From an uncultured archaeon (GTDB taxonomy: Archaea; Asgardarchaeota; Lokiarchaeia; Sigyniarchaeales; Promethearchaeaceae), in contig CAYRPF010000016.1 in assembly GCA_964426185.1 (NCBI GenBank), forward strand, positions 1-32,000: DNA of 32,000 nucleotides, written 5' to 3'. The notes under the pieces are model-generated. The model was not told the DNA's origin and did not search any database. It saw nothing but the letters and a program-made list of their open reading frames with translations. Below are positions 15,255 to 17,514 of this stretch, in pieces (position 1 is the first letter of the stretch; every line of letters begins with the position of its first letter). Made by a program: the position numbers and the translations under genes.

Positions 15255-15296
15255 GTCCATACATCCCTTCAAATTTGATTTTTGGATGTATATCAT
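15255..15296 (-). promoter_or_regulatory. eukaryote-like SECIS element (3' UTR)
   Basis: Minus strand reads AUGA-U-AUACAUCC-AAAAA-UCAAAUUUGA-AG-GGAUGUAU-G-GA-C: UGAN/NGAN core, perfect 8-bp helix, unpaired A-run and apical mini-stem, just downstream of an ORF with in-frame UGA. Confidence 0.8.
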
Positions 15297-15655: not shown

Positions 15656-15859
15656 ACACACTACCGAGTAACTTTAACCATTCCTAACCAAAAAATCTTG
15701 ATATCAAAGTAGTTAGATACCCAAACTGTTATTTTCCATAAATTTTTAATAAAAAAACATGGCAAAATATTTGCACAACCTTTATAAACTAACGAAAACT
15801 ATGGTTATTTAGAGTTGGAATTCCAACTGCACTCCCTAAACCCAACCTTGGTGAGAATC

Positions 15860-16285
15860 ATGGTAGACGATATGGAATTAGAACTTATCCGAAGAAAAAA
15901 AATAGAAGAGATGATGAAAATGAGTCAAAAAACCATCCCAAATGAAGTAATCAATATTGAATCAGTCGATCATTTCAATAAATTGGTAAATGATTACCAA
16001 GATAGCTTGATCATAGTAGATAATTGGGCAGAATGGTGTGGACCATGTAGAGCTTTTGCCCCAACCTATGATGCCCTTCAAAAAGAGTATCATGATAAAG
16101 ACGTGATATTTGCAAAGCTGAATGTTGATCACCATCAAGACATAGCTGCGCAATTCCAAGTGACGGGCATTCCGACAACTTTATTTATTCATAATAAGAA
16201 ATTAGTGCATCGACAGGTAGGAATGGCACCAAAGCCGCAATTTGCGCAGATCATTGATGCAGTTTTGAAGAAAATTAAGCAATAA
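15860..16285 (+). CDS. trxA: thioredoxin with archaeal N-terminal helical extension
   Basis: WAEWCGPC, AKLNVD and GIPT; ATG at 15860 with GGTGA ribosome-binding site. Confidence 0.92.
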   Translation: MVDDMELELIRRKKIEEMMKMSQKTIPNEVINIESVDHFNKLVNDYQDSLIIVDNWAEWCGPCRAFAPTYDALQKEYHDKDVIFAKLNVDHHQDIAAQFQVTGIPTTLFIHNKKLVHRQVGMAPKPQFAQIIDAVLKKIKQ

Positions 16286-16983: not shown

Positions 16984-17514
16984 ATGGTTGACTTCGTTTT
17001 AAAAATTGTACTATTAGGAGAAGGAGGGGTTGGAAAAACTTCTCTCGTTTACCGCTATATCGAAAATCGTTTCAGTCAAGATTTCAAATCTACGCTCGGA
17101 GTAAACCTCTTGAAAAAAAAAGTTGCCTTGGAAGATGAATTTGCTGGAAAATCCGCATCAATTCAACTATGGGACTTAGGAGGACAAAGTGCGTATCGAA
17201 AACTCCGAAAATTGTATTTAGAAGGTTCTCAAGGTGCACTGGTGGTATTCGACGTTACTTCACGTGAAAGCTTCGAGGCGCTTGAGGATTGGATTGAATC
17301 TTTGATAGAGATTCGTGGCAAGGAGGTTCCCATGATTATAATTGGAAATAAGATAGATTTGGAACCAGATCGCGTTATTAGCGATGAAGAAGCGCGTGAA
17401 TATGCGAAAAAATATAATACTGATGTGCTTTTTACTTCAGCTGCGACTGGTGAGAAAGTTGAAGATTCGTTTAAAGATTTAATTATGACAATTGTTCGAA
17501 AAATTTCGACCTAA
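16984..17514 (+). CDS. Rab-like small GTPase (Ras superfamily)
   Basis: G1 GEGGVGKT, G2 STLGV, G3 WDLGGQ, G4 NKID, G5 SAA; no C-terminal Cys prenylation motif. Confidence 0.92.
   Translation: MVDFVLKIVLLGEGGVGKTSLVYRYIENRFSQDFKSTLGVNLLKKKVALEDEFAGKSASIQLWDLGGQSAYRKLRKLYLEGSQGALVVFDVTSRESFEALEDWIESLIEIRGKEVPMIIIGNKIDLEPDRVISDEEAREYAKKYNTDVLFTSAATGEKVEDSFKDLIMTIVRKIST

Follow-up and report, generated by a model that had tools for sequence, protein, structure and literature searches.

The 32,000-nt stretch of DNA analysed here (the window) lies on contig C16 of an Asgard archaeal genome that is 92% complete, with a GC content of 34%. On its minus strand it carries a short gene with an in-frame UGA and, in the 3' UTR of that gene, a small hairpin with an AUGA at its base. 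The locus raises the question of whether this hairpin is a SECIS element by which the upstream UGA is read as Sec, as an initial annotation made from the sequence had proposed. The evidence set out below makes it very probable that the hairpin works as a SECIS, of the lokiSECIS or eSECIS-like kind known from Asgard archaea, and that it serves from the 3' UTR the 111-codon gene upstream. An RNA of this kind is already known; the gene family that it serves, a third arm of the structure and the natural variants of its core are the parts worth following.

The letters and coordinates of the element, together with the distance of 23 nt from the stop codon to the AUGA, are exact as initially annotated when read against the sequence. 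The upper stem has nine positions, made up of 8 Watson-Crick pairs and a closing U-G pair, with 0 mismatches. Folding of the 41-nt core bears out the claimed perfect 8-bp helix with its U-G pair, and sequence and fold agree with the claim of AUGA and GA core letters and of an unpaired A-run. The core folds at -10.2 kcal/mol (z = -2.6), and 1 of 200 shuffled sequences is equally stable. The apical region is laid out as AAAAA-UCAAAUUUGA-AG, in which a ministem UCA-AAUU-UGA is possible between the A-run and the AG; the 3-bp apical ministem UCA/UGA is present in the fold of the core. When the whole 86-nt UTR is folded without constraints, the stem is kept, part of the AUGA pairs with a downstream CAUUU, and the z-score of the UTR as a whole is only -1.5.

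Table 1. Features of the selenoprotein gene and its SECIS in the window, and other SECIS elements of the host genome.
Feature	Position or sequence	Strand	Basis or remark
Selenoprotein gene, 111 codons, own stop TGA	15655-15320	minus	translation with TGA read as U
In-frame UGA, proposed Sec codon 35, motif YKG-U-CG	15553-15551	minus	column invariant in alignment A5
8-bp UGA-proximal hairpin, 6 nt past the proposed Sec UGA	15544-15513	minus	z -2.7 in window
Stop codon TGA of the served gene	15322-15320	minus	sequence read
Whole SECIS region	15309-15232	minus	core at 15296-15256
Outer (lower) helix, 5' strand UAAAACC	15309-15303	minus	duplex fold with 15238-15232; homologous to outer helix of relatives
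AUGA, 5' half of presumed kink-turn (tandem G.A) core	15296-15293	minus	sequence; invariant in 18/18 aligned elements
Upper stem, 5' arm UAUACAUCC	15292-15284	minus	fold and covariation
Apical region AAAAAUCAAAUUUGAAG, 17 nt	15283-15267	minus	fold; AAA at loop positions 3-5 family-invariant
Upper stem, 3' arm GGAUGUAUG	15266-15258	minus	fold and covariation
GA, 3' half of presumed kink-turn core	15257-15256	minus	sequence; GA in 17/18 aligned elements
C directly after GA	15255	minus	sequence
Weak side hairpin (third arm) CAA-CGCCAU-UUG	15253-15242	minus	flank comparison and constrained folds of relatives; 3 bp only
Outer helix, 3' strand GGUUUUG	15238-15232	minus	constrained folds and duplex fold
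selD SECIS	GUGA-U-GGAGAAGA-GUAAACUUUAAG-UUUUCUCC-U-GA		host genome
SECIS of VhuD-like gene with two U	AUGA-A-CGUUGAUC-GUAAACUUUUG-GAUCGACG-G-GA		host genome
SECIS of C86 paralogue	loop AUAAACUUCG		host genome
SECIS of UU paralogues on C15 and C43			host genome
SECIS element on C42			host genome

An AT-rich genome holds many weak hairpins, and relaxed descriptors of the element give 386 matches against 222 in the control, so that a chance hairpin beside a broken or split gene has to be considered. More demanding descriptors speak against it. A strict lokiSECIS descriptor (AUGA, 9 pairs, a loop beginning with AAA and ending with G, then GA) has one match in the 3.26-Mb genome, which is the window site, and 0 in the reversed genome. 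A medium descriptor, which asks for AUGA-N-8 perfect pairs, then 9-24 loop nucleotides with AAA in positions 3-5 of the loop, and N-GA, matches 7 times in the genome. Ten block shuffles average 0.3 matches and the reversed genome has 0, so that the count exceeds chance by far; at least 4 of the 7 matches follow, at 15-27 nt, an ORF whose in-frame TGA is conserved. Together with the covariation over 18 elements, the score of a covariance model and the conservation of the TGA in 39 genes, all described below, these counts effectively refute the idea of a chance hairpin, the probability of which is close to nil.

Searching all six frames of 400 genomes from the phylum for relatives of the gene yields 44 of them in 23 genomes. 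In 39 of the 44 (23 of the 400 genomes) a TGA stands in the identical alignment column, as [YF]xG-U-CG or as a double G-U-U-G. Downstream of the stop codon, 34 of these 39 TGA-bearing genes carry the same hairpin, and its common design consists of AUGA, one mostly unpaired position, 8 pairs, a loop with an A-rich start (mostly [AG]UAAAC), one further position, and GA. The 3' core reads GA in 32 of the 34 hairpins, AA in 1 and UA in 1, and in the 18 UC-type genes for which the distance was measured exactly the SECIS starts 1-34 nt past the stop codon. The stems vary widely in sequence, from AU-rich GCAAAUUU/AAAUUUGC to GC-rich CCCGCCCC/GGGGUGGG.

This variation leaves the pairing in place. In an alignment of 18 elements (A1), made with MAFFT and with no structure fitted, all of the 8 inner stem pairs show double-sided, compensatory changes. 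Paired cells make up 88% of this alignment; sliding the partner lowers the share to 24-48%, and shuffling lowers it to 61.5%, with none of 500 shuffles as high as the real alignment. In 14 of the 18 elements the stem opens with a non-Watson-Crick position, which would suit stacking on the presumed G.A pairs. Even the closest orthologue (G001, 49% protein identity) has two compensatory C-G to U-A pairs relative to the window.

Fourteen paralogous elements served to train a covariance model (R1); the window element, its orthologue and the host-genome paralogue were left out. On the 32-kb window, R1 gives the SECIS as the sole significant match, at 26.4 bits (E 8.6e-5), with the runner-up at 11.2 bits. 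The model also finds the SECIS of the host selD gene (20.3 bits) and the UU-subfamily elements, which had been held out, and it has no match at four loci of relatives without the TGA. Downstream of all five relatives that lack the TGA, and have CC, DC or another motif instead, the AUGA/AAA/GA hairpin was not found. The covariance-model check, the compensatory changes behind TGA-bearing orthologues and paralogues, the loss of the hairpin in relatives without TGA and the match to another SECIS of the genome, each of which the initial annotation had put forward as a test of its claim, thus come out as a SECIS would have them; the findings that could have spoken against a SECIS, on conservation, on the match to other SECIS elements and on absence in non-TGA relatives, all favour it. 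The tie between the hairpin and TGA-bearing genes likewise upholds the annotated view that the element supports a Sec reading of the UGA.

A conserved hairpin could also have another job: it might regulate as a kink-turn bound by L7Ae, govern mRNA stability, end transcription or act as a signal on the next gene, with the UGA recoded in some other way, for example by the 8-bp hairpin that begins 6 nt behind it. The location is suggestive of such a role, since the element sits between two co-oriented genes, ~70 nt ahead of the start of a TPR gene, and the hairpin behind the UGA is strong in the window. However, the 3'-UTR hairpin is found behind the TGA-bearing members, selD and VhuD, and is not found behind relatives without the TGA. 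The UGA-proximal hairpin is not conserved, with a median z of +0.45 over 21 homologues among which the window alone is significant, and therefore cannot be the insertion signal of the family; it may help locally in the window. This result also speaks against a bacterial-type SECIS right behind the UGA as the conserved signal, and that reading was rejected. The terminator reading of the window hairpin was rejected as well, as there is no terminator-like site. T-runs, the usual archaeal termination signal, follow the outer helix in most relatives and do not come before the SECIS. That the RNA serves a different purpose is, on balance, highly improbable.

With the SECIS reading preferred, attention turns to the protein. 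Conserved residues occur past the UGA (P71, G91 and L98), and translation is taken to go on beyond the UGA because the residues after it are conserved. The ORF of the window is intact on either side of the UGA and keeps all of the family-invariant residues. An AlphaFold model of the window protein has a pLDDT of 91 and a pTM of 0.82, and its top Foldseek matches in the PDB are IscA, SufA and HesB-type proteins, the best being IscA (1r94_A, E 5.7e-5, TM 0.60/0.66). At the level of sequence, Pfam gives no significant family for the window protein and a profile search of PDB sequences with it gives no match. The family NF041239 (CC/Se motif family (seleno)protein) has sub-threshold matches to 20 of 21 members, with a best E of 1.8e-9; the window protein itself reaches 13 bits, against a cut-off of 40.

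Members of the family occur in the cultured Promethearchaeum syntrophicum MK-D1 and (Candidatus) Lokiarchaeum ossiferum as well as in Promethearchaeum/Promethearchaeota MAGs, where they are recognised by the DNA pattern with TGA. Both cultured genomes have three family genes apiece, and the names of these relatives place the host, as a Loki-type Asgard archaeon, in the taxonomic family of the two cultures. In public protein sets the family is present only as C-terminal fragments of 51-71 aa, named 'hypothetical protein', or as full-length proteins with W at the TGA. Seven selenoprotein families are known from Asgard archaea (Huang, Xiao, Zhang 2024, PMC11227280) and eleven from archaea (2026 review, PMC13188914); an IscA-fold G-U-C-G family is absent among the Asgard selenoproteins of both sources, and NF041239 is not flagged as archaeal.

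The family loci comprise the window gene, L010-L029 and L035-L072. A sister subfamily with two adjacent candidate Sec codons (G-U-U-G or Q-U-U-G) counts 8 genes in 7 genomes, including MK-D1. Each of these UU genes (G000 C43:5685-5999 (+), C15:29765-30103 (-), L066-L071) has its own SECIS. Directly upstream of the UU paralogue on C15, and in tandem with it, lies a Cys-Cys paralogue with the motif MRS-CC-S (G000 C15:30136-30393 (-)), which has no TGA and no SECIS of its own.

The host genome contains the machinery that such a gene would need. It has one tRNA-Sec, a selD gene that itself has an in-frame TGA, SepSecS, a PSTK-like gene, and SelB/EFSec above the curated cut-off; the wing domain of bacterial SelB (PF09106) has no match in the genome, as expected for an archaeon. 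A protein resembling SBP2, which is a long protein with an L7Ae domain, is not evident in the genome, where only two L7Ae-family matches occur (ORFs of 124 and 137 aa), and SBP2 was not found in Loki either (Mariotti et al. 2016, PMC4989117). The neighbours of the selenoprotein gene are a divergent thioredoxin gene, a Ras-family GTPase gene and the TPR gene. The thioredoxin (WCGPC) is encoded at 15815-16285 (+), and the small GTPase, of a family typical of Asgard genomes, nearby at 16984-17514 (+). Contigs from four DNA metagenome runs (hydrothermal vent, marine, sediment) cover the region without differences, so that they offer no population variation to exploit.

The structure extends beyond the core. 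Constrained folds, in which the upper stem and an unpaired core are imposed, give a three-armed shape in about 15 of 18 relatives. Their outer helix has 6-9 bp, starts 5-7 nt before the AUGA, and closes after a second small hairpin that stands behind GA-C. In 18 of 18 cases the duplex of this outer helix surpasses its shuffled controls in stability, with a median z of -2.1. From a MAFFT alignment of the extended elements, RNAalifold recovers the upper stem alone and misses the outer parts, because the flanks are misaligned. In the window, the outer helix has 7 pairs at -6.6 kcal/mol (duplexfold), with a z of -1.2 that is not significant when the helix is taken alone, and the side hairpin is visibly homologous in sequence to the CAAAGCCGUUUG-type hairpin of relatives. 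As predicted from these sequences, the third arm is a feature of the family that is weak in the window. In the portions of PMC4989117 and PMC11227280 at hand, no description of an outer helix enclosing a second small hairpin was found.

The three-armed shape also bears on the members that depart from the common design. Five distant TGA-bearing members are without the canonical core; in two of these the three arms are still present, with AAGA or AAAA replacing AUGA. At L055 and L056 (G186 and G187, from another family of the class) and at L020 (G014), outer helix, A-rich-loop hairpin and side hairpin are all kept, with AAGA, AAAA or UUCA at the place of AUGA and no 3' GA; these are candidate SECIS elements that would work without a kink-turn.

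Compared with the other SECIS elements of its genome (Table 1), the window element differs only in its loop, which holds AAAAA and the ministem and is 17 nt long, versus 10-12 nt; the loops of other paralogues are likewise 10-12 nt. A perfect SECIS on C42 (G000 C42:2550-2583 (+)), with the loop AUAAACUUCG, follows a C-U-U site (TGC TGA TGA) at a distance of ~140 nt, and the ORF upstream of it is open right up to the SECIS. In the closest orthologue, the loop of 23 nt has CAAAA, a 4-bp ministem at the same place as in the window but of different sequence, and GA. The element of this orthologue (L010:1409-1463 (-)) has a perfect 9-position stem and an AUGA...UA core, which could be a natural core variant or the mark of a weakened element. 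A further orthologue (G002, L011:1813-1867 (+)) has a ministem of 2 bp at most, drawn by eye, and an irregular lower stem, and its ORF, for want of a stop codon ahead of the SECIS, continues across the hairpin and gains 19 residues. A ministem at the same place in the orthologues is suggestive, in a sample too small for covariation. The apical stem of form 2 that had been claimed for the window therefore stands as far as the 3 bp here and the 4 bp in the closest orthologue go, yet it is weakly supported and differs in sequence between them.

The same orthologues can be taken to indicate decay, that is, a SECIS of real ancestry that has drifted in this genus, in which case Sec would be inserted poorly or no longer and the gene would be turning into a pseudogene. 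All three orthologues of the genus have atypical elements, with loops of 17-23 nt, the UA of G001, and the irregular stem and ORF read-through of G002, and the outer helix of the window is not significant by itself. Against this, AUGA/GA core, 9-position stem and A-run are all intact in the window; so is the ORF on both sides of the UGA, with its invariant residues and a confidently modelled fold. The window element also outscores the SECIS of the host selD gene with R1. Decay is therefore very unlikely, and the window hairpin is best regarded as a working SECIS.

For a working SECIS, the following mechanism is proposed. The AUGA and GA would form tandem sheared G.A pairs, making up a kink-turn-like core at the base of the 9-position stem. 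The A-rich start of the apical region would be displayed above this core, with the A-run and the length of the stem positioning it. The fold may then recruit SelB/EFSec with Sec-tRNA(Sec), either directly or via a putative kink-turn-binding adaptor, whereupon the UGA at codon 35, which stands 254 nt upstream of the AUGA, would be decoded as Sec. The UGA at the end of the gene, 23 nt from the core, would be too close for recoding and would terminate translation. This last step would be explained by a minimum-spacing rule like that of eukaryotes, where such a rule for recoding is reportedly known from spacing studies on deiodinase SECIS elements. The distance is shorter still at some other loci: at L012, L015 and L016 the AUGA begins 1 nt past a TGA stop codon, and at L053 stop codon and AUGA share their UGA.

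Taken jointly, these observations probably describe an uncatalogued family of Asgard selenoproteins of ~100 aa, with an IscA/HesB fold, a G-U-C-G active site and a G-U-U-G sister group (39 genes in 23 genomes), which is served by a three-armed SECIS. On this joint reading, the ministem, akin to type II, was acquired in the genus of the window, and the frequent occurrence of a terminal UGA within 1-23 nt of the core implies that recoding needs a minimum distance, like the one in eukaryotes. With the family present in the two best-known cultured Asgard archaea, it becomes possible to test whether Sec is inserted, which factor binds the SECIS and what the third arm does. About 34 natural SECIS variants with diverse stems and loops, including the UA core and the non-AUGA forms, could define what the Asgard machinery requires. 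Since the family escapes both gene callers and public protein sets, the selenoproteomes of Asgard archaea are under-counted.

Among known systems, the nearest to the window protein are the HesB-like selenoprotein (TIGR01911) and NF041239, with which it shares a length of ~100 aa, the IscA/HesB fold, and a candidate Sec that takes the place of the first cluster-binding Cys in IscA. It differs from both in being without a C-terminal CxC, and the motif of its family is G-U-C-G (G-U-U-G in the sister subfamily) in place of the UxGP or CxxU given in the 2026 review (PMC13188914). The gene also stands outside the seven Asgard selenoprotein families of PMC4989117 and PMC11227280.

The RNA can be set beside three kinds of SECIS. 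With those of euryarchaea (Methanococcales, Methanopyrus) it shares an archaeal 3'-UTR site and the presumed ability to act from afar on a UGA upstream. It has neither the GAA/A asymmetric bulge nor the GC-rich lower stem of 10 bp and upper stem of 3 bp found there; its stem is AU-rich and uninterrupted, and its conserved letters are AUGA, AAA and GA, in contrast with the GAA_A type. With eukaryotic SECIS elements (RF00031 SECIS_1 etc., form 1/2) it has in common the 3'-UTR site, the AUGA...GA core of the quartet type, unpaired A residues above helix II and, as in form 2, an optional apical ministem. Helix II, with 9 positions, is shorter than in the eukaryotic element, as had been annotated, and a side hairpin is inserted on the 3' side ahead of the lower helix, unlike in eukaryotes. 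No SECIS family of Rfam reaches its gathering threshold in the window, and at E values of up to 10 the segment 15180-15340 (161 nt) yields noise only (SAM-V, snoR07 and others) and no SECIS family. The elements of Loki are likewise without a match to SECIS models (Mariotti 2016, PMC4989117). As for the kink-turn motif, in which tandem sheared G.A pairs adjoin a 3-nt bulge and a canonical helix to give a sharp kink, the AUGA/GA letters of the window would allow it.

The closest agreement is with the lokiSECIS itself, the rules for which are AUGA, a 9-bp stem, a loop of the form AAAAA...AG, GA, and a place near the end of the CDS (Mariotti 2016, PMC4989117). The initial annotation had placed the element with the eukaryote-like SECIS known from Loki and not with the methanogen type, and it fits these rules without a GAA/A bulge. 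AUGA, the stem of 9 positions, the AAAAA...AG loop and GA are all present in the window, the element belongs to the 3' UTR of a gene that contains an in-frame UGA and whose genome also encodes Sec machinery, and it shows compensatory conservation (34 of 39 homologues, 8 of 8 pairs, 26.4 bits with R1). In the lokiSECIS and the Asgard eSECIS-like elements, the 5' core is AUGA, rarely GUGA, the 3' core is GA or AA, and the loop ends in G, usually after A (PMC4989117, PMC11227280). The loop is exactly 11 nt in the canonical lokiSECIS of the PrxL/VhuU/HdrA-VhuD form (PMC4989117), whereas that of the window has 17 nt. The more recent division of Asgard eSECIS-like elements into types I and II allows stems of 7-15 bp with up to 2 mismatches and, in type I, loops of 8-20 nt (Huang 2024, PMC11227280), and an apical ministem, the mark of type II, is found mainly in selD (PMC4989117, PMC11227280). 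The window element fits type I by the length of its loop and type II by a 7-nt bulge, a ministem of 3-4 bp and a small loop, and like the lokiSECIS it occurs in a Loki-type Asgard host whose Sec pathway is the archaeal/eukaryotic one.
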